From an uncultured Gammaproteobacteria bacterium (GTDB lineage: Bacteria; Patescibacteriota; Microgenomatia; CAYSOG01): a stretch of DNA of 64,000 bases. The stretch lies in NCBI GenBank assembly GCA_964432675.1, contig CAYSOG010000001.1, positions 4,523 to 68,522 of the forward strand. The letters are read 5' to 3'. Positions 26,456-63,685 of the stretch are shown here, piece after piece (the first letter of the stretch is position 1; each line of letters opens with the position of its first letter). Under the pieces are notes generated by a model. It was not told where the DNA came from. It saw nothing but the letters and a program-made list of their open reading frames with translations, and made no database searches. Position numbers and translations under genes: made by a program.

Positions 26456-26526
26456 TGCGGGATCGTCTAATGGTAGGACACATGCCTCTGGAGCATGGTA
26501 TCTAGGTCCGAATCCTAGTCCCGCAG
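26456..26526 (+). tRNA. tRNA-Gln (anticodon CUG), no encoded 3' CCA
   Basis: Manual fold: acceptor TGCGGGA/TCCCGCA with U1-A72 and G73 (typical tRNA-Gln identity). D-arm GTCT/GGAC. Anticodon stem CATGC/GCATG with loop CUCUGGA (CUG at 34-36). T-arm CTAGG-TCCGAAT-CCTAG. 3' end followed by CTCG. Confidence 0.7.
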
Positions 26527-53948: not shown

Positions 53949-55511
53949 ATGAACCTTTTCTTAATCAAATATATTCGGCATATGGTATTGACCGCTAGTT
54001 TCATTACGGCGGTTGTCGTTTATATCATCTTATCGTTGACTTTTGCTGACACAAGCTTGCGTATAATTAGGTTAGTTGAAATATATGCCTTTTGTGCCGT
54101 CATTATGCTGTATTTAGCAATGTTGGCAAGTCCTCTCTATGCCGTTTTCCCAAATTTTCCATTTCGTCCGTATTACATTAAAGCGAGGCGCGCGATCGGT
54201 AATTCGGCATTCTTCTTTGGACTTACTCACGGTACGTTGGCGTTTTTTATGCTGTTGGGCGGATTTTCGGGTTTAGGGTTCCTGGCGCCGCAGTATCTGC
54301 TCGCTATTATTTTGAGTTTTACTGCCCTACTTATTTTGACATTAATGGCCGCCACATCGTTTGACTATATGGTGCAAAAACTTGGCACAAAGTGGAAAAA
54401 ATTACATCGTTTTGTTTATATTGCCGGCTTATTAGTCATCATCCACACATTCCTTATTGGTACGCATTTTCAGGATTTGTCAGGTTGGATACCGCAGCTC
54501 TTTATTGGAGCACTTGTGTTCTTGTTGTTACTTGAGTCCATTAGGTTTGACCGTTTCATTAGTAATAAATTTCTAGGCCTACCCCGATATGGCATCGTAT
54601 TTGTGCTTTGCGTAGTTGCCATGGCCGCTGCTATTTCCTATTTGTACTTTCCACAAGGGTCAGGGACACCAACTTTGGGTATTCATGCTGCCCATATCCA
54701 GCTAGCCAAGCAAGCCCAAAACACAACAGCCAACCAGCCATCGACCAATATCCCCGGACTAAATTGCGATAGGACAAAACGGTACACGGTAAGCTTTAAC
54801 AATCCTCCAAACGTTCAGCCGAACCAAGATGTAACCCTTACTTTTACGGTGTACGATGCTTCAAGCGGTAATCCGGTCACCTTCTTCACCCCAATTTATG
54901 AGAAAGTTATGCACCTTGTTATCGTTAACAATGATCTTACTTACTTTACCCATATTCACCCCACCCAAAATGGCGCAACGTTTAGTATCACTACAAAATT
55001 TCCAACCGATGGTGTTTACCATCTATACATAGATTTTCAACCCCTGGGGGCCATAGAACAGCAGATTGGTTTTACACTTCCAGTTGGTAATACGGCAAAT
55101 GTCCAACCTCCATCAATGCCAGCGGATACTAGTCTCACGAAGAATTTTGGCAATTATCAAGTGACCTTATCAAAACCAAATCCATTGAAAGCTGCCAATA
55201 TTTCGATCGGAGAGCAAACTTTAACCTTTACCATAAAAGATGCCAAAACCGGTCAGCCAATTACAACATTAAAGCCCTATTTGGCAGCATATGGTCACTT
55301 ATCGATGATTAACCAACAAACGTTCGATTTTATTCATGTCCACCCATCTAATTTAACCCCACCGGCACCAAATGCTAATGGTGGCCCAAATGTTACATTT
55401 TTACCACTTGGACTGTACGGACCAATTAAACCTGGCGTTTATACAATCTTTGCTGAATTTAATCCCGACGGAAACTTATTCACAGCAACTTTTACGGTAG
55501 AAGTACAATAG
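53949..55511 (+). CDS. Ferric-reductase-like transmembrane domain (di-heme, MsrQ/YedZ-type) fused to two tandem periplasmic His-containing beta-domains
   Basis: FRD-like 6-TM region with conserved His (GLTHGTLAF; LHRFVYIAGLLVIIHTF). Two roughly 110-aa repeats each carrying F(T/I)H(I/V)HP. Confidence 0.55.
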   Translation: MNLFLIKYIRHMVLTASFITAVVVYIILSLTFADTSLRIIRLVEIYAFCAVIMLYLAMLASPLYAVFPNFPFRPYYIKARRAIGNSAFFFGLTHGTLAFFMLLGGFSGLGFLAPQYLLAIILSFTALLILTLMAATSFDYMVQKLGTKWKKLHRFVYIAGLLVIIHTFLIGTHFQDLSGWIPQLFIGALVFLLLLESIRFDRFISNKFLGLPRYGIVFVLCVVAMAAAISYLYFPQGSGTPTLGIHAAHIQLAKQAQNTTANQPSTNIPGLNCDRTKRYTVSFNNPPNVQPNQDVTLTFTVYDASSGNPVTFFTPIYEKVMHLVIVNNDLTYFTHIHPTQNGATFSITTKFPTDGVYHLYIDFQPLGAIEQQIGFTLPVGNTANVQPPSMPADTSLTKNFGNYQVTLSKPNPLKAANISIGEQTLTFTIKDAKTGQPITTLKPYLAAYGHLSMINQQTFDFIHVHPSNLTPPAPNANGGPNVTFLPLGLYGPIKPGVYTIFAEFNPDGNLFTATFTVEVQ

Positions 55512-55667
55512 GAAAATCAAATATTAAGAATTGAAATGCAAAATCGTATAGTAGAATGTAACATTTTTCATTTTTTGAGCTATCCACCATCCGACAGCTG
55601 GCTGGAGGAGGGTTGCTTCATGAGTACATGACACTCGTACAATATTGATTTTTGATTTAACTACTAT

Positions 55668-56252
55668 ATGCTGAAAAAGATATCTGCTAGTATTCTTCTA
55701 TTTATAGTTTCTGGAATTATATTTGTCCCGATTGTTTCAGCTCATATCTTAAGGTCCGATGGTTCTATCGGTGCAGTATTACATATCGATCCAGAAGACG
55801 ATCCGATTGCTGGCCAACAATCTGGATTTTTCTTTGAGTTTAAGGATAAGCAAAATAAATTTACTCCCACCAATTGCGATTGTACATTTTCCATTAATGA
55901 ACAGAGCAAGGAAATTTATAGCCAGCCGTTGTTTGCGGGCAATGCTAATCCAAATTTAGAAAATGCATCGATATTTTATACGTTCCCCAAAAAAGACGTC
56001 TATGAAGTGGCGGTAGTTGGTAAGCCAATCCAAGCCAACGCTTTCCAGCCATTTACTCTACGATACGACCTGCGGGTAGATCGGGAAGTACAAAATGGCT
56101 ATACGTCCAATAACATCTTTTTCAGTGATCTAGAGCAGCTTAATAATAACTTAGGTGGTCATCTACCACATTATGTTGGTCTTGCGATTATTGTTATTGC
56201 GTTCCTTATATTTTTATATATTGATAGACGTAATCGTCCAAAAAATATATAA
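55668..56252 (+). CDS. Secreted His1 protein with C-terminal TM anchor (CopC/YtkA-like candidate copper-binding protein)
   Basis: Signal peptide ending VSA|HIL. CxC (NCDC). C-terminal TM (VGLAIIVIAFLIFLYI). Confidence 0.4.
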   Translation: MLKKISASILLFIVSGIIFVPIVSAHILRSDGSIGAVLHIDPEDDPIAGQQSGFFFEFKDKQNKFTPTNCDCTFSINEQSKEIYSQPLFAGNANPNLENASIFYTFPKKDVYEVAVVGKPIQANAFQPFTLRYDLRVDREVQNGYTSNNIFFSDLEQLNNNLGGHLPHYVGLAIIVIAFLIFLYIDRRNRPKNI

Positions 56253-56297
56253 CTATTAAAAACAAATATAAGTTAGGCAATTTTAAAAGGAGTAATT

Positions 56298-56951
56298 ATG
56301 CATCGGAAAATTATTACTGTTTCTGTCGTTACAATGGCGTTTCTGCTGTTGAGCGTTTCGGTTGCATCGGCACATATGGTTGTTAAACCTTCTACTGTTG
56401 GTATTGGCAGCGTCCAAAACTTTAGTTTGGGTGTACCAACTGAAAAGGGAGGCTCGACGGTTGCTGTTCGTTTGCTAGTTCCGGATGGCCTAGATGACGT
56501 AACACCAAATGTCAAACCCGGCTGGAGGATTGAAGTCAAGAAAAATGGTACAGGCGATAACTTACCAGTTACCGAAATTGATTGGAGTGGTGGCAGCATC
56601 CCATCAGGTCAGCGAGATGAGTTTTTATTTTCGGCCCAAGTCCCGGCGAACACGACAATATTGCAGTGGAAAGCCTACCAAATATACAACGATGGTAGTA
56701 CGGTTGCTTGGGACCAACCTCCAGTAAACAATGCTGCGTCACCCGCTGATGATAGCACGATGAAAAACGGATCTTATTCTACTACGCAGGTTGTTAATGA
56801 CCTGACTAGCAATGCAACCGGATCGGTTATGGCAAATGCTTCATCGGATAAAACAGTTAGTTATGTTGCTTGGGCAGCTCTTGCTATTGCCCTAGTATCA
56901 TTGGTGTTGGCGGTAAAGCCAATGATGAAGCCAAAAGACACCAACATCTAA
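56298..56951 (+). CDS. YcnI-like (DUF1775) copper-binding protein, C-terminal TM anchor
   Basis: Signal ending ASA|HMVV, then GIGSVQNFSLGVPTEKGGSTVAVRLLVPDGL..VKPGW....IDWSGG.I..GQRDEFLF, which matches the YcnI/DUF1775 architecture. Thr/Ser linker and TM. Confidence 0.7.
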   Translation: MHRKIITVSVVTMAFLLLSVSVASAHMVVKPSTVGIGSVQNFSLGVPTEKGGSTVAVRLLVPDGLDDVTPNVKPGWRIEVKKNGTGDNLPVTEIDWSGGSIPSGQRDEFLFSAQVPANTTILQWKAYQIYNDGSTVAWDQPPVNNAASPADDSTMKNGSYSTTQVVNDLTSNATGSVMANASSDKTVSYVAWAALAIALVSLVLAVKPMMKPKDTNI

Positions 56952-56981
56952 AGAGTTTGAAATTGCTATAGAAATGAAAAA

Positions 56982-57014
56982 TGGCTTGTACCTTTTGGGG
57001 TGCAAGCCATTTTC
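56982..57014 (+). terminator. Intrinsic terminator after YcnI-like gene
   Basis: TGGCTTGTACC-ttttgg-GGTGCAAGCCA followed by TTTTCAATAT. Confidence 0.6.
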
Positions 57015-57605
57015 AATATAAGACCTGGTAGTAAAACCACCAGGTCTCAAAAAAGGAGGTGAGAGTGTCCCTTGCGGGACAAAAGTATACTACCATATTA
57101 GTCGACAAATGTCAAACCTATAAGTAATAAATAATGATGTTCACTTTGCTCTGTTTTAGATACGTTTTGAGATTAGCCGAAGCCAGCATATATGCAATAA
57201 GTTAGAATTACTTATAAACCTATAGCAGAATATTAATGTCACCACTAATATACCAAAAGTTATCACTTTAAATTTACTATTGCCAATCTGCAAAGTAATT
57301 ATTCAAGTTGATATAGTTTAAAACTAGAGTGTATTTAATTGATAGAATTGACAGGGCATTTATGGTCCATGGTATTGTACACCCAGTACGGTTGCTCGGC
57401 TTAAGTAAGGTATCAATACTGAGCAAAATGCAATGATTTCCTTCCGATAATCCATTAGCAGGCTTACGGCCGTACAAATGTTTCGGAAAGCGCTTTTTCA
57501 CTGAAAAATGCGCTCCTGCCCTTTTTCGAAACATGTCATTATTTACTGTTCCAACTAATGCAAAACAACACTTGCCCATTTATTAATCAATCTATTATTT
57601 TTACT

Positions 57606-57654
57606 ACCGGTAACGAATACTCTCATGCAGAGGGATGTGTTACCGGTTTTTATT
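57606..57654 (+). promoter_or_regulatory. Terminator-like long hairpin (ACCGGTAAC...GTTACCGGT + T5) in leader about 45 nt upstream of TasA-like gene; candidate attenuator/riboregulator
   Basis: 9-bp perfect stem, 24-nt loop, then TTTTTATT. It sits between a roughly 650-bp non-coding region and the RBS GGGAGGTGAGGG. Confidence 0.5.
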
Positions 57655-57701
57655 GATCAAAAGTAAAGTCAAAAATTTCAATTGAAGGGAGGTGAGGGAA
57701 T

Positions 57702-58316
57702 ATAAATACAAAAATTGCATTAAGCGGCCTCTCCGTCGTTGCCTCACTAGCCCTCATGGGTGGTGCAACGTTTGCATTTTTTACTAGCACTGCAACCAGC
57801 ACTGCAAATGCTTTTTCATCAGGAACCCTAATATTACAGGTTAATGATAATAATGAAACAGCAGCAGCATCTGTTACTGCCTCATTTAATACGGGTAATA
57901 CTGGATTAAAACCGGGGGATACTACGTCTGGCTTCATCTCACTTGATAATACTGGATCAATTAATATAGATCATATTACTTTGGCAGTATCTCAGACGGC
58001 TAATAGCACCCCGAGTTTAGCAGACGTATTAAATGTTACGGCAGCAGGATTATCAACAAGTTCATCGTGTACTAGCCCAACAGATTTACTCGCAGGTTGG
58101 CAGGCACAATCAGGTTTAAGTGGACCCACAACGTTAACTAAATTAATAACCAAGGGTGAGTTTAACGCTGTACCAGGAGGTTTAACAGCAGGAGCAACGA
58201 AGTATCTTTGTATGACTTTCACGATGGATAGTAATGCAACAAATACTTACCAAGGTGCTACAACGACGGATACATTTAGCTTTATTGGGAAGCAAGATGC
58301 GTCGCAATTACCTTAG
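57702..58316 (+). CDS. TasA/camelysin-like secreted protein with SipW-cognate-type signal peptide (fibre subunit candidate 1)
   Basis: In-frame upstream of the first ATG (57756) the frame encodes NINTKIALSGLSVVASLAL-MGGATFAFFTSTATSTANAFSSGTL. This is a complete n/h-region plus the TasA-class motif, so initiation probably occurs at ATA/ATT (57702/57714) 5-17 nt after the RBS. Thr/Ser-rich. Confidence 0.6.
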   Translation: MNTKIALSGLSVVASLALMGGATFAFFTSTATSTANAFSSGTLILQVNDNNETAAASVTASFNTGNTGLKPGDTTSGFISLDNTGSINIDHITLAVSQTANSTPSLADVLNVTAAGLSTSSSCTSPTDLLAGWQAQSGLSGPTTLTKLITKGEFNAVPGGLTAGATKYLCMTFTMDSNATNTYQGATTTDTFSFIGKQDASQLP

Positions 58317-58396
58317 AAACGAAGAAGCTGGTAGTGGGGTAAAAATTGCTCCACTACCAGCCGAGAGTACATAAATAATTATAGTACACGAAAGCT

Positions 58397-58966
58397 ATGA
58401 GGAAAATAAAAACTTTAGCAAGAGTTGGGTTTAAGACAATACTTTTTGTGTTGATGCCGGTGGTGGTGTTCACATTAGTTACATCTAAAACAGCATTTAT
58501 CGGCGGTATTAAGTCATTTATTGTTATGACGGGATCAATGCAACCAACGGTGCCGGTTGGTAGTATTGCTTTTGTCCAAAAGCAGCGAGTATATGATATT
58601 GGCGATGTTGTAACCTATCAACACGGTGATGTTTCTATAACGCACCGAGTGGTTCAGAAATTCTATAAAGATGACGGTGTTTATTACCAAACAAAAGGGG
58701 ATGCAAACAATGTCGCTGACAGCGAGTTAGTGAAGCAGTCCGACATTATCGGCAAGGGCATATTCCAAATCCAATATGCCGGTAAAATTATTGTCTTTAT
58801 GAAAACGCTACAAGGATTTTTAAGCTTAGTTATTTTCCCCACCCTTTTATTTGTTGGATTCGAGCTATGGGGTATAAAAAATGAGATCGTCAAGGAAACT
58901 GAAAAAAGAGTATTGAAAAAAATGGAGGGCAATGGACAAACGATACTTGGCCTTAGCAATACTTAG
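58397..58966 (+). CDS. sipW: Signal peptidase I, archaeal/SipW type (S26B), copy 1
   Basis: N-terminal TM, catalytic box MTGSMQPTVPVGS (SGSMxPT) and the conserved His region. C-terminal TM. Confidence 0.8.
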   Translation: MRKIKTLARVGFKTILFVLMPVVVFTLVTSKTAFIGGIKSFIVMTGSMQPTVPVGSIAFVQKQRVYDIGDVVTYQHGDVSITHRVVQKFYKDDGVYYQTKGDANNVADSELVKQSDIIGKGIFQIQYAGKIIVFMKTLQGFLSLVIFPTLLFVGFELWGIKNEIVKETEKRVLKKMEGNGQTILGLSNT

Positions 58967-59603
58967 TATTCCAGCCGCTTCGATTATTGGCTTTGTGGCA
59001 ACACATTCTTTTTACAGCGGTGCTGCCAATTCAACGAGCAATGTCTTCGCTGCTGCCTCTCTTTTCCCAACACCGACACCACCTCCACTAGCCTCGACGT
59101 TAGTAATAAATGAAATACTACCTGCTTCTAGCTGTGTTGATGGAAATAAAACAGTTAATTGGATCGAACTTTGGAACGGGACAAGTGGCACAGTTAACTT
59201 GCAAGGTTTCAAGATTAGTGATGGCACAAATATAACGGATTTAGTAAATTCAAGTACAACTATAGCTTCTCACCAGTTTGCACTCATCGCAAAAGATGGA
59301 AGTATATTCAATCATGGTACAAGTAAAGGCAACAAATGTTATGCAGATAATAACGCGGTCACTGCTAATCTTGGTAATAGCTCGCCAGTGGTTTTTACAA
59401 CTGGCGTGTTAAGGCTACTCCAATCTGATGGAACTACAGTAATCGATAGGGTTCAATTTAACGGAACATTCGACGGTCAAAACCTTAGCGCACCAACTGA
59501 TCAATCTATCGAAAGAAAAATTACGGGTCAAGATTCAGCTATCGGCGACACATTTAATGGTCAAGACTTTGTTATACGGACGACACCAACACCGGGTCTA
59601 TAA
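58932..59603 (+). CDS. Lamin-tail-domain (LTD) protein with SipW-cognate-like signal
   Basis: N-terminus GFVATHSFYSGAANSTSNVFAAASL (TasA-class signal motif). LTD signature LVINEILPA....NWIELWNGTSGTVNLQGFKISDG. Confidence 0.6.
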   Translation: MDKRYLALAILSIPAASIIGFVATHSFYSGAANSTSNVFAAASLFPTPTPPPLASTLVINEILPASSCVDGNKTVNWIELWNGTSGTVNLQGFKISDGTNITDLVNSSTTIASHQFALIAKDGSIFNHGTSKGNKCYADNNAVTANLGNSSPVVFTTGVLRLLQSDGTTVIDRVQFNGTFDGQNLSAPTDQSIERKITGQDSAIGDTFNGQDFVIRTTPTPGL

Positions 59604-59608
59604 AAATT

Positions 59609-60919
59609 ATGAAAAAACGAATTATTCGATTAACTGCGCTTGTTATGATCATTGCAATAGTTTTTGCGACACATCAGAGTGAGTTTTTGGCGCTGTTTAA
59701 TCCGAAAACGGTTCGGGCATTTGGTGATTTGACGGTTGACTTTCATGTGCCAACAAATGCCCCGATTTTTACTATTACAAATATGGCACCGGGGCAAATG
59801 GAAACGAGAAATGTTGATGTCAATAATACTGGCAGTGTTGACCGCATGGTTTCGGTCAAAGGGGTTAAAACTTCTGAAACTGGCAATTTATCAAATGTTC
59901 TTTCAATCGTTATTAGCGAAGGCAGTACTGATTTATATGGTGGGACAGCGCTTGGGGGCCCAAAGCACTTATCAGACTTTTTTGCCGATAGCAGTAGTGC
60001 CAATGGCATAATGTTAAGTACTTTGCAAGCAGGACACCATACTACTTATATCTTTAAAGTAACGTTTGATTCGTCGGCGGGTAATGCCTATCAAAATAAA
60101 CAAGTAATTTTTGACTTAACGTTCGGTGAGGTAACTGGTAATAATGTTGTCATTAATGAAGTCTTTTATAATGTTGACGCAGTGCATGGCTTAGATTCTC
60201 CTGGCGATCGTGGGGTAACTGTCGGCGGTATCAGCACAAGCATTATCGGTAATGGTGCGGGATCGGTTAATAAGATATTTATTGATATTGACAACAATTG
60301 CTCGATCAACCAAGTGAACAATTCATCAACTACAACAACGATTAACCAGAATGCTAATACCGGTAATAATTCAGCCAATGGCAATACTGGAGGAACTACA
60401 ATTATTCAAACGGGATCGATTACGCAATCGGTTAGCGTTACTAACAAAGGGAATGTTAACAGCGCCCAGTGTTCACAAGGCAAAAAGTTAGGCCAAAACG
60501 ACGAATGGGTAGAGTTATTCAACCCCACGGACCATGATATTAGCCTGAAGAATTATAGCTTTGTTGATAATTCAGGCATTGTGACCAAAATAAATGGTAA
60601 CTTCACTATTAAGTCGCTGAAATTTGCCTTAGTTTCTAAAGACAATAGTACCTGGACTCATTGGTCAGTTCCTGCAGGCACGCTGAAGATTCCTTTGGGT
60701 CATCAAATCGGTGATGGATTAAATAATAGTGGTGACCATTTAACCCTTAATGATGCCGCCAATCACAATATTGATGCACTTTCATGGGGCAATGATACTA
60801 CTATATTTACCTTAAGCGGCGTTTTAGCCGGCCATTCGCTTTCGCGCAACGTGCCCGGCTTAGATACCGATTCGGCTACCGACTGGCACGATCAAAATCC
60901 ACCAACTCCAGGCAGTTAA
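59609..60919 (+). CDS. Membrane-anchored camelysin/TasA-like domain protein with C-terminal lamin-tail domain
   Basis: N-terminal TM, TasA-like beta-rich domain, Asn/Thr-rich linker, LTD (VVINEVFYNV...DEWVELFNPTDHDISLKNYSFVDNSG). Confidence 0.55.
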   Translation: MKKRIIRLTALVMIIAIVFATHQSEFLALFNPKTVRAFGDLTVDFHVPTNAPIFTITNMAPGQMETRNVDVNNTGSVDRMVSVKGVKTSETGNLSNVLSIVISEGSTDLYGGTALGGPKHLSDFFADSSSANGIMLSTLQAGHHTTYIFKVTFDSSAGNAYQNKQVIFDLTFGEVTGNNVVINEVFYNVDAVHGLDSPGDRGVTVGGISTSIIGNGAGSVNKIFIDIDNNCSINQVNNSSTTTTINQNANTGNNSANGNTGGTTIIQTGSITQSVSVTNKGNVNSAQCSQGKKLGQNDEWVELFNPTDHDISLKNYSFVDNSGIVTKINGNFTIKSLKFALVSKDNSTWTHWSVPAGTLKIPLGHQIGDGLNNSGDHLTLNDAANHNIDALSWGNDTTIFTLSGVLAGHSLSRNVPGLDTDSATDWHDQNPPTPGS

Positions 60920-60934
60920 TCTGCTATCATTATA

Positions 60935-61438
60935 GTGATGGATCACACGCACCGACGACTTATTTTTCTATTTGCATTTCTCCTGTTTGGTATTTTATTA
61001 GCAGTCGTGTTGTCATGGACTTTTGTTTCATCAGTTAATTTGTCTGCTAAGAAAACTCCCATTTTACAAGCCTCAGTATTACCAAAGCCAACGCAGCAAA
61101 CATCATTACCAGCACAACCCCGTGGTACTTTAACTGGTAACGTTACCATTGGCCCGAATTGCCCAGTAGAGCGTATCGGGCATCCTTGTACACCTTCGCC
61201 ACAAGCATACACTCGTTACGTTCTTCTCCTTTACACACAGGATAAAAGTACCGTCGTAAAGACCATAGTGCCAGACCAAAGAGGAGAGTTTACTGTTGGG
61301 ATTGACCCTGGAACATATATTTTAGATAGTGCAAACCAGGGAATTGGTTTTCATAGCAAAAATTTACCTCAAACGATTGTTATTATGCCAAACCAAATTG
61401 AAAGTGTAAGCATTGCCTTTGATACAGGTATCCGATAG
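60935..61438 (+). CDS. Hypothetical membrane-anchored protein
   Basis: N-terminal TM. 167 aa. No family recognised. Confidence 0.4.
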   Translation: MMDHTHRRLIFLFAFLLFGILLAVVLSWTFVSSVNLSAKKTPILQASVLPKPTQQTSLPAQPRGTLTGNVTIGPNCPVERIGHPCTPSPQAYTRYVLLLYTQDKSTVVKTIVPDQRGEFTVGIDPGTYILDSANQGIGFHSKNLPQTIVIMPNQIESVSIAFDTGIR

Positions 61439-61535
61439 CTGTGTGACAGAATTACTTGACTTGTTTTTCATCCAATTTCCCTAAGTACTCAGATATTGAT
61501 ATAGAAACTTGATAGAATGATATTAATTGTTCCAG

Positions 61536-61563
61536 TTGACAGTTTTGCTTGCTGTGCTATTAT
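61536..61563 (+). promoter_or_regulatory. Sigma70-like promoter (TTGACA-16 bp-TATTAT) for second TasA-like gene
   Basis: Consensus -35 with a good -10. The roughly 140-nt leader carries three CTGCCC-containing direct repeats before the RBS AAGGAGGTGG. Confidence 0.55.
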
Positions 61564-61706
61564 GGGTTTTGTTAGGGTTTTTGCATAAATATCTGCCAAC
61601 TGCCTCTACTTTCTTTACAAAATCCTTAAGCTTTATAATTTTCTGCCCCATATTGATATTCTGCCCGGTCTTACTGCCCACAATGCATTCGAAAGGAGGT
61701 GGAAGT

Positions 61707-62360
61707 ATGAGTAAACGGTTAGTGTTAAGTTATGGACTAATCGGCGCTGTGTTGCTCTTATTTAGCACTGCTACCTATGCGTATTTTAACGAAACCAGTA
61801 CTAGTAGCGGTAATATACTTGGTGCTAATACGCTAACAATGTCACTTTCAAACGATAATATTGCCTACGCAGACAATGTTACCGGAACGATTGGCAGTAA
61901 TGGACTAAATCCTGGTGATTTATTCAATGGAGATTTGTTCATTAAAAATAATGGTAATTCAAGTGCTAACCATCTCGATTTGAGCTTTAAGAATGCTGTT
62001 GTTAACGCATCGTCGGGTCCAGGAACTGGTACATCGCCAACCTTTTCTTCTGTATTAGAAGTTCAACAATTAATGTGGGATGCAGATGGCGATGGTGTAG
62101 CCGAAACGAATATGTTGCCAGCTACCTGCGATACAGCATCAACCTCAAACCATAATGGCATCTGCGACTTGCAAGATTTAGAAAATCTTGGTGTTTCCGG
62201 GGCTGCCGATGTACCGAATTTACTGTTTGAGGGTACGCAAAATGCTGGTCATAAACTCCATGTTGCAGGCAGGTTAAGTTCACTTGCGACAAATGTTCAT
62301 CAAGGTGATAGCGATACGTTGTCATTGACTATATTCATGGACCAAGGGCCGCATTCATAA
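61707..62360 (+). CDS. TasA/camelysin-like secreted protein with SipW-cognate-type signal peptide (fibre subunit candidate 2)
   Basis: ATG 7 nt after RBS AAGGAGGTGG. MSKRLVLSYGLIGAVLLLFSTATYAYFNETSTSSGNILGANTLTMSLS. The long ORF-track start at 61527 lacks an RBS and is rejected. Confidence 0.65.
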   Translation: MSKRLVLSYGLIGAVLLLFSTATYAYFNETSTSSGNILGANTLTMSLSNDNIAYADNVTGTIGSNGLNPGDLFNGDLFIKNNGNSSANHLDLSFKNAVVNASSGPGTGTSPTFSSVLEVQQLMWDADGDGVAETNMLPATCDTASTSNHNGICDLQDLENLGVSGAADVPNLLFEGTQNAGHKLHVAGRLSSLATNVHQGDSDTLSLTIFMDQGPHS

Positions 62361-62530
62361 GGAGTGTTATTCTGCGCCTAGCGAAGAATCTAGGCAAAGC
62401 TGTAGACCAATATCGGAAAACGCTTGCACTAGATCCTTCGCTAATCCTCCTTCTCCCGCTTACTGCAGGATACGGAAGGACAGACTACTCAGGATGACAA
62501 AAGTTACTTAGAATTACTAAGAAAAAATAT

Positions 62531-63100
62531 ATGAAAAAGATATTAGGTATTACCTTTGCATTACTAAAAACTGGACTGATGATTATTGTACTGGTTATGC
62601 TACCATTAATTGTCTTTACTTTCGTGACAGCAAAAACTTCGTTGTTTGCTACTGTTAGATCGTATGTTGTTGTTTCAGGCAGTATGGAACCCACAATACC
62701 GGTTGGCAGTATTGCTTTTATGATGCCATTTACCGACTATGACATAGGTGATGTCATTTCCTTTAAGCGTGGTAATGAAGTCATAACTCATCGTATTGTC
62801 CAAAAAATGGTCAAGCCAACAGGTACAGAGTACCAAACAAAAGGTGATGCAAATAAGCAGCCCGACGAACAGCTGGTAAATGAAGAACAGATTATCGGCA
62901 AGGGTGTGTTCCAGGTATTATATGCCGGTAGAATATTTTTCTTTCTTAAGTCACCATTAGGGTTTATTACTTGCATTTTTCTTCCGACCTTTAGTTATAT
63001 AGCGTTGGAAGTACATACAATTCAGCAGCTAACTTCAAGGCAAACCGAACAACGCCTTTTGCAAAAACTTGCCAAACAACCATGGCCCGCTACAGCTTAA
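62531..63100 (+). CDS. sipW: Signal peptidase I, archaeal/SipW type (S26B), copy 2
   Basis: VVSGSMEPTIPVGS catalytic box. Same architecture as copy 1. Confidence 0.8.
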   Translation: MKKILGITFALLKTGLMIIVLVMLPLIVFTFVTAKTSLFATVRSYVVVSGSMEPTIPVGSIAFMMPFTDYDIGDVISFKRGNEVITHRIVQKMVKPTGTEYQTKGDANKQPDEQLVNEEQIIGKGVFQVLYAGRIFFFLKSPLGFITCIFLPTFSYIALEVHTIQQLTSRQTEQRLLQKLAKQPWPATA

Positions 63101-63256
63101 TCGCGCTTGTTTTATTATCAGTTCTTGTCGCTACTTTTACGTTGTCGCATGCATACTTTAACTCCCAGAAAACATCTTCACAAAACTACTTCTCTGCATC
63201 AATGAATTTTCCCACACCAAAACCCTAGATTTGCCAAATGCTATACTATAAATGAC

Positions 63257-63685
63257 ATGAGTACCGGAATTATATTTGCCATTATTGCAGCAGCAGCATT
63301 TGGCTCAATTACAGTTTTTCAAAAATTAGCGGCAAATTATGTGTATTACTTTTTTGGTGCATTGCTTATATCTATAACTGCAATTGTCATAGAAATATGT
63401 TTTCTAATCCCAAGATTTAGGAACATAACACTTGTTTCCAATCCAAAAGGTATAATATTTGCAATCGCTGCAGGAGCTTGTGCAACAGTAATAGATGTAG
63501 CTTCAATTAAGGCATATTCTAGTGGTCTTCCGGTTTCTATTGGTGGTCCAATAATACTAGGAGGTAGTGTTGCTGTTGCTGCGGTTATCGGTTTATTTTT
63601 AGGCGAGTCACTGTCGCTTCTTAAATTTTTAGGATTGATACTTATTATTGCCGGCTCAGTAATTCTTGGAGGTATAAGTAAGTAG
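63257..63685 (+). CDS. Small DMT/EamA-like four-TM membrane protein
   Basis: 142 aa with four hydrophobic helices and Gly-rich packing motifs. Confidence 0.45.
   Translation: MSTGIIFAIIAAAAFGSITVFQKLAANYVYYFFGALLISITAIVIEICFLIPRFRNITLVSNPKGIIFAIAAGACATVIDVASIKAYSSGLPVSIGGPIILGGSVAVAAVIGLFLGESLSLLKFLGLILIIAGSVILGGISK

Follow-up and report, generated by a model that had tools for sequence, protein, structure and literature searches.

A probable TasA-type fibre cassette with lamin-tail-domain end proteins in a bacterium of the Candidate Phyla Radiation

The window analysed here is a stretch of 64,000 nucleotides (G+C about 41%) of contig CAYSOG010000001.1 (assembly GCA_964432675.1, positions 4,523 to 68,522), filed under the name of an uncultured Gammaproteobacteria bacterium. 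On its plus strand, between 57.7 and 63.1 kb, lie seven co-directional open reading frames (ORFs), labelled g1 to g7 in 5' to 3' order. Here, I propose, with a probability of roughly 0.55, that they encode a TasA-type extracellular fibre system of a Candidate Phyla Radiation (CPR; Microgenomates-like) bacterium, built from a conserved four-gene cassette in which lamin-tail-domain (LTD) proteins would form the end pieces. The locus consists of a complete cassette of four genes (g1 to g4), a surface-protein gene of generic type (g5) and a second cassette that is truncated. The best reading is still a role as an extracellular fibre or in adhesion, already supposed in a preliminary description of this DNA. 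The unit that carries it is a different one, for that description treated the seven genes as a single module starting at 57340, whereas the conserved unit has four genes, g5 occurs in no other cassette and the first gene begins at 57702; all that stands at the earlier start coordinate is a weak promoter-like match (57339-57366).

The family assignments previously made for the seven genes all stood, namely TasA/camelysin-like for g1 and g6 (PF12389), SipW for g2 and g7 (here by TIGR02228), and LTD for g3 and g4 (PF00932). Profile searches returned matches to PF12389, PF00932, TIGR04088 and the S26B peptidases, the cut-offs (in bits) being 22.5 for PF12389, 34.3 for PF00932, 51.85 for TIGR02228, 47 for TIGR02227, 19 for TIGR04088, 450 for NF046066 and 190 for NF046067; neither a lack of TasA or LTD matches nor a peptidase box of the ordinary bacterial kind was encountered. 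Apart from the start of g1, the ORFs are intact; they have ribosome-binding sites, and the junctions between them overlap or are tight.

The sequence of g1 (57702-58316, or from 57756 if an internal ATG is used) identifies it as a TasA homolog of compact size that bears a SipW-type signal, and it is the candidate for the major fibre subunit. Like g6 (23.4 bits), it exceeds the gathering score of PF12389 (45.4 bits) and, when read from codon 57702, it matches the SipW-type signal model TIGR04088 at 22.2 bits. Its donor-strand motif reads ATFA/FFTSTATSTANAFSSGTL (the slash marks, here and below, the predicted cleavage point), and the pattern F..F...N-x-F is conserved in the g1 family. With a mature length of about 180 amino acids (aa), g1 is a minimal TasA homolog that carries the donor-strand motif and nothing further. 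The g1-family profile aligns almost full-length with Bacillus subtilis TasA (5of1, 8aur; E 1e-8). The AlphaFold model of g1 has a mean predicted local distance difference test (pLDDT) score of 83.6; residues 1-40 are of low confidence (48-64) and the core lies above 88, which fits a free N-terminal extension. When this model was compared with the PDB by Foldseek, the sole significant match was 8aur_A, the TasA fibre (E 6.6e-8); 8aur_A is the best PDB match of the g4 model too, both models thus having a TasA-type jelly-roll. The equivalog model of B. subtilis TasA, NF046066, scored 30.5 bits against its cut-off of 450, which marks these proteins as members of the family and not as TasA orthologs.

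The second and the last of the seven genes, g2 (SipW1, 58397-58966) and g7 (SipW2, 62531-63100), encode predicted SipW peptidases of the archaeal and endoplasmic reticulum type (S26B). The archaeal-type signal peptidase I model TIGR02228 gives 95.4 bits for g2 and 96.4 for g7, and the bacterial LepB-type model TIGR02227 stays below its cut-off (18.8 and 18.3 bits), which bears out the earlier view that the box is not of the LepB type. SipW1 has transmembrane helices at its N- and C-terminus, and its best solved relatives by sequence are human SEC11C and SEC11A, with which it aligns at TGSMQP/SGSMEP, ITHRV/IVHRV and TKGDAN/TKGDNN. Its predicted catalytic residues are Ser47 (TGSMQP), His83 (ITHRV) and Asp102 (TKGDAN); the aligned Ser, His and Asp are here taken to be catalytic on the strength of what is established for SipW and SEC11. 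SipW2 keeps SGSMEP, ITHRIV and TKGDAN in alignment with SipW1, and a Ser-His(-Asp) arrangement, instead of Ser-Lys, is found in both alignments. Neither peptidase reaches the cut-off of the Bacillus SipW equivalog model NF046067 (87.6 and 81 bits). As to the origin of SipW2, foreign acquisition was considered and rejected: among 29 aligned SipW sequences SipW1 is the closest to it (45% identity), the SipW of locus L089 being 41% identical, and an old duplication within the lineage is more likely.

The third gene, g3 (58932-59603), overlaps sipW1 by 35 nt. Its product opens with a transmembrane signal; next come a SipW-type motif that includes a TasA-like donor strand (THS/FYSGAANSTSNVFAAASL), an FPTPTPPP linker and, finally, an LTD (PF00932, 44.1 bits). 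The corresponding proteins of other loci follow the same plan, with a transmembrane segment, the motif [ST]-x-[FY]-[AS]-F-F-[ST]...S-x-x-N-x-F-x-A, a Pro/Thr linker and LVINEV. Two custom N-terminal profiles were built without any window sequence, one from the N-termini of the g1 family and one from the g3-type N-termini of other loci. Searched against the 291 ORFs of the window, the g1-family profile ranked g1, g6 and g3 as its top three (g3 at E 1.6e-5), and the g3-type profile matched g3 at E 4.8e-6. In 90 sources (the window plus 89 loci fetched for comparison, L001 to L089), the g3 N-terminal motif profile matched only TasA-like proteins, g3-type LTD proteins and one remnant ORF, described below. 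Of the three SipW-type signals that had been expected in the window, those of g1 and g6 (26-26.8 bits) are thus recovered by TIGR04088 and that of g3 by the custom profiles, TIGR04088 missing it. The N-terminal motif and its spacing are common to g3 and g1, and g3 is best described as a predicted SipW-type pre-protein in which the donor-strand segment has been kept and the jelly-roll swapped for a linker and an immunoglobulin (Ig)-like domain. By analogy with TapA, its role would be to initiate or cap the fibre as a donor only.

The fourth protein, g4 (59609-60919), joins a TasA-like domain to an LTD. It comprises a hydrophobic helix (aa 1-21), a TasA-like jelly-roll (aa 31-173), the first LTD strand (aa ~179-190, with VVINEV at ~181-186), an inserted Asn/Gly-rich 'i-repeat' of about 90 aa with two Cys (aa ~196-292, nt ~60194-60484) and the remaining LTD (aa 293-436), PF00932 matching aa 295-394 at 43.3 bits. 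The LTD is accordingly split by the insert, and it is contiguous in the insert-free relatives of L005, L008 and L009. A Pfam match, PF12389 included, is absent from the N-terminal half; the camelysin-like character claimed for it is nonetheless borne out, for aa 31-173 align with the g1 family in hhalign with a probability of 98.9% (E 3.4e-17), and the AlphaFold model (pLDDT 83.4; insert 53-69) finds 8aur_A first in Foldseek (E 1.1e-5), followed by the Ig folds of lamin A/C and B1/B2 (E 6e-5 to 8e-4, template modelling score ~0.6 on the target).

No SipW-type motif was found in g4 with TIGR04088 or with the g1-family or g3-type N-terminal profiles, and g4 as a SipW substrate with a TIGR04088-type motif is unsupported by these three profiles. 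Ala37 is invariant in 50 of 50 family sequences, with V, A, I, S or L at position -3 (V-x-A/F context in g4), and it directly precedes FGDLTV, which aligns with TasA F39-L44. Relatives of g4 with short N-termini have canonical signal peptides that end at the Ala equivalent to Ala37. Mature g4 would consequently lack an equivalent of the TasA donor strand (residues 28-38). In place of the membrane anchoring formerly assumed, g4 is probably cleaved and secreted, and would be an acceptor-only end subunit.

The i-repeat, for which no Pfam family was found, is an Asn/Gly-rich element of about 85 aa (ISGNGAxSxN...NTGGNDANxNTGGD...TGDA), of which the LTD of g4 holds one copy. There are also secreted proteins built from 1-5 copies of it, which have ordinary signal peptides of the AxA kind. 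Genes for such proteins adjoin the cassette in L001/L002, L003/L004, L011, L012, L013, L017, L087, L088 and L089, examples being L001:2923-4233, L001:4465-6819, L001:7030-7389, L087:2259-3515 (minus strand), L088:8472-9128 and L089:10889-11497. Through the repeat, the fibre may be connected to a surface layer of repeat proteins. The C-termini of g3 and g4 read PTPG-x and show no LPXTG-type sorting signal. Several loci have sortase genes only a few kb away from the cassette (L003:12622-13308, L003:20055-20738, L088:9663-10211, L089:5943-6671); because g3 and g4 have no such signal, a link of these sortases to the cassette is not evident.

The following assembly may be envisaged from these parts. 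In both g1 and g3, SipW1 would cut immediately ahead of the F-[AFY]-F/Y...N-x-F motif, and cleavage would expose an N-terminal strand equivalent to TasA residues 28-38. The g1 subunits would then polymerise, each donating its strand into the beta-sandwich of the next. With its donor strand, Pro/Thr linker and complete Ig-like LTD, g3 would fill the groove of the first g1 and so start or cap that end, placing its LTD there in a TapA-like role. At the other end, g4, left without a donor strand after a cut at V-x-Ala37, would accept the free strand and bring in a second LTD with its Asn/Gly-rich repeat insert. Assembly of this kind would yield a fibre whose polarity is defined and whose two ends each bear an LTD, or in the minimal version a g3:g4 complex; one end would presumably sit on the cell envelope and the other on a substrate, a neighbouring cell or a matrix. 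A donor strand without jelly-roll in g3 and a jelly-roll without donor strand in g4 are hard to explain without strand complementation.

The conservation of the cassette was followed by calling ORFs in the 90 sources and searching them with iterated profiles of each part. SipW, TasA-like and LTD genes occur together in 29 of them, the window included; L026 has TasA-like and LTD genes, with no SipW detected. The order is always the same: TasA-like genes (1-4 copies), SipW, the LTD protein, and a TasA-like protein with or without LTD. A synteny search had been proposed, and the recurrence of this order in 28 other loci argues against a chance grouping. These 28 loci are all named for CPR/Patescibacteria lineages or are doubtfully labelled, and the cassette is seen in Curtiss-, Roizman-, Gottesman-, Chisholm- and Portnoybacteria, in CPR3 and in metagenome-assembled genomes labelled 'Saccharibacteria'. 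The closest relatives of the window (g4 54-60% identical) have the intact four-gene cassette only. For g4 there are 236 homolog clusters, all the named ones coming from Candidatus Curtiss-, Levy-, Roizman- or Woesebacteria or the 'Patescibacteria group', and when species-representative genomes were scanned, Gottesman-, Chisholm- and Portnoybacteria, CPR3 and others joined the list. That the host is not a Bacillus, as had been surmised, agrees with the fact that all named homologs are from CPR/Microgenomates lineages. Going by these named homologs alone, the window most likely belongs to an ultra-small, Microgenomates-type member of the CPR. Outside the CPR, no linkage of LTD and SipW genes was found in 60 LTD-only loci (Chloroflexota, Archaea, Bacteroidota and others), which had been selected for LTD similarity to g4 and cover about 8 kb on either side. 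Four contigs of metagenome-assembled genomes titled 'uncultured Gammaproteobacteria' (L009, L018, L030 and L036) carry a CPR-type cassette, and the taxonomic labels of their co-assembly bins look unreliable; the g4 homolog of L009 is 54% identical to that of the window.

A case in point for the bond between peptidase and LTD protein concerns the loci L001/L002, L003/L004, L007, L012, L013, L022, L036 and L088, in which SipW and the g3-type LTD protein are one ORF. In-frame fusions lie at L001:8659-9996, L003:8674-9990, L007:3-1196, L013:7098-8435, L022:7164-8501, L036:7140-8420 and L088:5532-6815. In most of the fused loci, though not in L012, the two domains are separated by a transmembrane segment and a SipW-type motif (TIGR04088 gives 17 bits inside the L003 fusion). 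Such fusions of peptidase and substrate tie the LTD protein to SipW, and the arrangement suggests self-processing, that is, a peptidase that would cut off its own C-terminal cargo. Another variant is met in further CPR lineages (L014, L015, L018, L019, L021, L023 and L035), where 2-4 TasA-like genes precede sipW and are followed, after it, by a protein of 740-1020 aa with a TasA-like domain and 1-2 LTDs, the next gene being TasA-like only (~370-520 aa). Across the CPR, the cassette is accordingly a theme with variations.

Downstream of the complete cassette, g5 (60935-61438) starts 15 nt past the end of g4. Its product has a transmembrane anchor at the N-terminus and, behind it, a beta-sandwich that is prealbumin/CarboxypepD_reg-like, with a SpaA match below threshold (E 7e-4). 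Its C-terminal ~105 aa have 1843 homologs in proteins of many architectures, with weak CarboxypepD_reg/SpaA matches, and no homolog of g5 was found in the 89 other loci. The domain being generic, g5 was rejected as a specific component of the system and is probably a bystander. Ahead of g6, the second cassette has a strong promoter-like site of its own, a sigma-70-like match on the plus strand (61536-61563; TTGACA, a 16-nt spacer with extended TG, TATTAT; 11 of 12 positions), which is the best match in 56900-63400, a region where the total of promoter-like matches is not above the shuffled expectation.

The second TasA-like subunit, g6 (61707-62360), has a GGAGGTGG ribosome-binding site before its ATG at 61707 and a SipW-type signal, STATYA/YFNETSTSSGNILGANTL. 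It is 25% identical to g1 (E 6e-12) and has a single homolog among 5.8 billion proteins, P0170 (50% identity), which heads a complete cassette of TasA-like, SipW, LTD and TasA-like genes in L089. Past g7 comes an eighth ORF, overlooked in the preliminary description, of 48 codons on the plus strand (63082-63228), whose overlap of 19 nt with sipW2 resembles that of g3 with sipW1. Its product, MARYSLIALVLLSVLVATFTLSHAYFNSQKTSSQNYFSASMNFPTPKP followed by a stop codon, has a g3-type N-terminus, with a signal, a SipW-type motif with the donor strand HAYFNSQKTSSQNYFSAS and FPTPKP (the start of a linker), and ends before any LTD. It is the fourth-best window ORF for the g1-family N-terminal profile (E 8.7e-4) and matches the g3-type profile at E 1.2e-6, being the only match in the 90 sources without an LTD or a TasA-like domain; an unrelated EamA gene begins 28 nt after it. 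Most likely it is the remnant of a truncated LTD gene. That it encodes a donor-strand-only mini-protein is less favoured than a deletion remnant because the search for such a recurrent peptide found no second example in the 90 sources. On the simplest reading, g6, g7 and this ORF are a paralogous second cassette from which the LTD gene and the TasA-like end gene have been deleted. The duplication previously described holds to this extent, the second copy being truncated. The second SipW, also held to be unusual, has parallels in L020 and L030, each with two SipW in one locus.

The start of g1 deserves attention. Its codon 1 (57702-57704) is ATA at a position where 37 of 37 aligned homologs have Met (MNxKIALS start), and a GGAGGTGA ribosome-binding site is intact 6 nt upstream. 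The next in-frame ATG, at 57756, is the one used by the public NCBI gene call (P0121, 186 aa), and a start there removes the signal peptide. Possible explanations of the ATA are a true mutation of the start codon, a weak start of a non-canonical kind and an error in the assembly; since the ATA replaces the start codon, the output of g1 may be low or lost in this genome.

Several observations weigh against the fibre reading. The PF12389 alignment spans just the first 81 residues of g1, and TIGR04088 gives no match for g3. Between the hydrophobic core of g4 and Ala37 there are 16 residues (5-21 in the family), which is long for a signal peptide, and g4 may stay membrane-anchored, or may be cut after VFA21, in which case it would retain an N-terminal extension that is poorly conserved. 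The binding targets of prokaryotic LTDs are not known (PMC6085458). In this particular genome, a canonical start codon is missing from g1 and the second cassette is truncated, and the system may be decaying.

Among the rival explanations, the products could be non-polymerising modular surface or secreted proteins, with SipW as a dedicated export peptidase and with jelly-rolls and LTDs that bind wall, glycan or extracellular DNA, a possible but rather unlikely case. The jelly-roll of g4 is indeed one module of a multi-domain protein, its equivalents in other CPR classes reach 700-1000 aa with 1-2 LTDs, and prokaryotic LTDs are found mainly in membrane-associated hydrolases and nucleases, no structural role having been shown for them. 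Yet g1 is minimal, with its ~180 mature residues, conserved donor-strand motif and no further modules; the complementarity of g3 and g4, in which the segment is kept in one and the jelly-roll in the other, points to strand complementation; and the structurally solved TasA-family members cited here all form donor-strand filaments (PMC9674648, PMC9245690). A further rival, which seems improbable, sees in the locus a relic that is decaying in this genome and has largely lost its function. It would account for the ATA at the conserved Met position of g1, where the next ATG (the one in P0121) drops the signal peptide, and for a second cassette reduced to a 48-codon stub where the LTD gene and the TasA-like end gene should be. 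The ATA could however be a metagenome assembly error or a weak start, the other ORFs are intact and keep their ribosome-binding sites and tight or overlapping junctions, the intact g6 and g7 could supply subunit and peptidase, and the closest relatives have all four genes of the cassette intact.

Least credible, and to be entertained only as a very long shot, is the chance neighbourhood of two ordinary TasA/SipW biofilm operons and unrelated LTD genes. LTD proteins do stand without a SipW or TasA-like gene within ~8 kb in 60 of the 90 sources, but the idea is contradicted by the SipW-LTD fusions of at least eight loci, and it is further opposed by the SipW-type signal on the g3 family, by the fusion of a TasA-like domain to the LTD in g4 and its relatives, and by the fixed gene order in the window and 28 other loci. 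The TasA-type fibre with LTD end pieces is the preferred reading. A bolder version of it, doubtful as it stands, is that the product is a short polar tether with g3 and g4 ends and a variable number of TasA-like subunits, serving host attachment or ligand capture via its LTDs, in some lineages made from self-cleaving fusions, and representing a CPR-wide organelle distinct from type IV pili. If this were true, extracellular DNA or envelope polymers would be suggested as ligands of the LTDs, and the tether would supply the first defined role for a prokaryotic lamin-tail domain.

The surroundings of the locus add little. Between 56952 and 57700 (~750 bp) there is no convincing gene, the sole ORF being one of 100 codons on the minus strand (57277-57579); it was considered as a transposase remnant and rejected, with zero Pfam matches. 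Further upstream, 53949-56951 holds a cluster that is probably copper- or metal-related and outside the fibre system: a membrane protein that resembles ferric reductases and has a YtkA-like domain (53949-55511), a secreted or membrane protein for which no family was named (55668-56252) and a DUF1775/YcnI-like protein (56298-56951, E 4e-22). Scans of the window for tRNA genes and Rfam families gave a single result, a tRNA-Gln at 26456, which is not relevant to the locus.

The CPR, or Patescibacteria, make up a large share of bacterial diversity, and many of them are thought to live attached to other cells; little is known of their surface structures beyond type IV pili. The cassette is widespread in CPR genomes and offers a simple assembly model that can be tested, with four small proteins of which two would serve as end pieces, one donor-only and the other acceptor-only. 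It would extend the donor-strand mechanism of TasA and TapA outside Firmicutes and Archaea, and it gives a concrete context for the function of bacterial lamin-tail domains. The coupling of LTD proteins to TasA and SipW had been called unusual. This holds for the searchable literature, in which no paper was found that joins lamin-tail domains with TasA, SipW, camelysin or Patescibacteria; it does not hold for genomes, where the coupling is common, as the homolog clusters of g4 indicate. One paper mentions, in passing, that Patescibacteria have TasA homologs (PMC9245690).

The closest known counterpart is the tapA-sipW-tasA operon of B. subtilis (8AUR, 5OF1). TasA fibres assemble via the donor strand 28-38, the first strand coming from TapA (PMC9674648), and TapA, which starts TasA filaments, consists of an N-terminal donor strand and an already complete Ig fold (PMC10151520). 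As in that operon, a TasA-family jelly-roll subunit with a SipW-type signal stands in one operon with an S26B peptidase, the accessory protein combines a donor strand with a complete Ig-like domain (TapA there, g3 here), and the accessory gene overlaps sipW. The differences are these: the gene order is another one, g1 is much smaller than TasA and no ortholog of it, and the SipWs are not equivalogs. Unlike TapA, moreover, g3 carries as its globular part an LTD on a Pro/Thr linker and shows no TapA homology, and no match to a TapA-related family was found among the seven proteins in Pfam or NCBIfam. There is here a fourth component without Bacillus counterpart, the TasA-like protein with LTD and no donor strand; SipW is sometimes fused to its presumed substrate in the relatives; and the host is a CPR bacterium. 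In Bacillus cereus, the sipW-tasA-calY (camelysin) locus reportedly has two paralogous TasA-family subunits and one SipW, with no LTD protein. The present locus has two SipWs and LTD proteins, and its two cassettes are 25% (subunits) and 45% (peptidases) identical.

Along the same line, the AbpA/AbpB bundling pili of the archaeon Pyrobaculum calidifontis (PMC9245690) have a TasA-like pilin that polymerises by strand donation with no chaperone or usher, and AbpB is a neighbouring multi-domain beta-rich protein, proposed as first-strand donor and adhesin. The archaeal operon, however, has no dedicated peptidase, AbpB has a TapA-like sandwich and not an LTD, and only comparisons of folds or profiles reveal the relation. 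For g4 there is also an analogy to the tip adhesins FimH and PapG, in which an acceptor pilin domain without its own donor strand is joined to a binding domain; Foldseek gave weak structural matches of the g1 and g4 models to FimG and the PapGII pilin domain. The present system has no homology to chaperone-usher pili and involves no chaperone, usher or outer membrane, export being by Sec and SipW. Finally, ExeM of Shewanella and Hvo_1477 of Haloferax are likewise secreted or membrane-associated proteins with a PF00932 LTD, and the SipW-LTD fusion of L001 has a faint match to the ExeM model over its LTD. Those two are nucleases or hydrolases, whereas g3 and g4 have no catalytic domain and are tied to TasA-like parts.

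To sum up, the parts of the locus come from known families and the system would work like tapA-sipW-tasA, but it is not a member of that operon type, because it has no TapA homolog, stays far under the cut-offs of NF046066 and NF046067, and possesses an extra component that combines a TasA-like domain with a lamin-tail domain.

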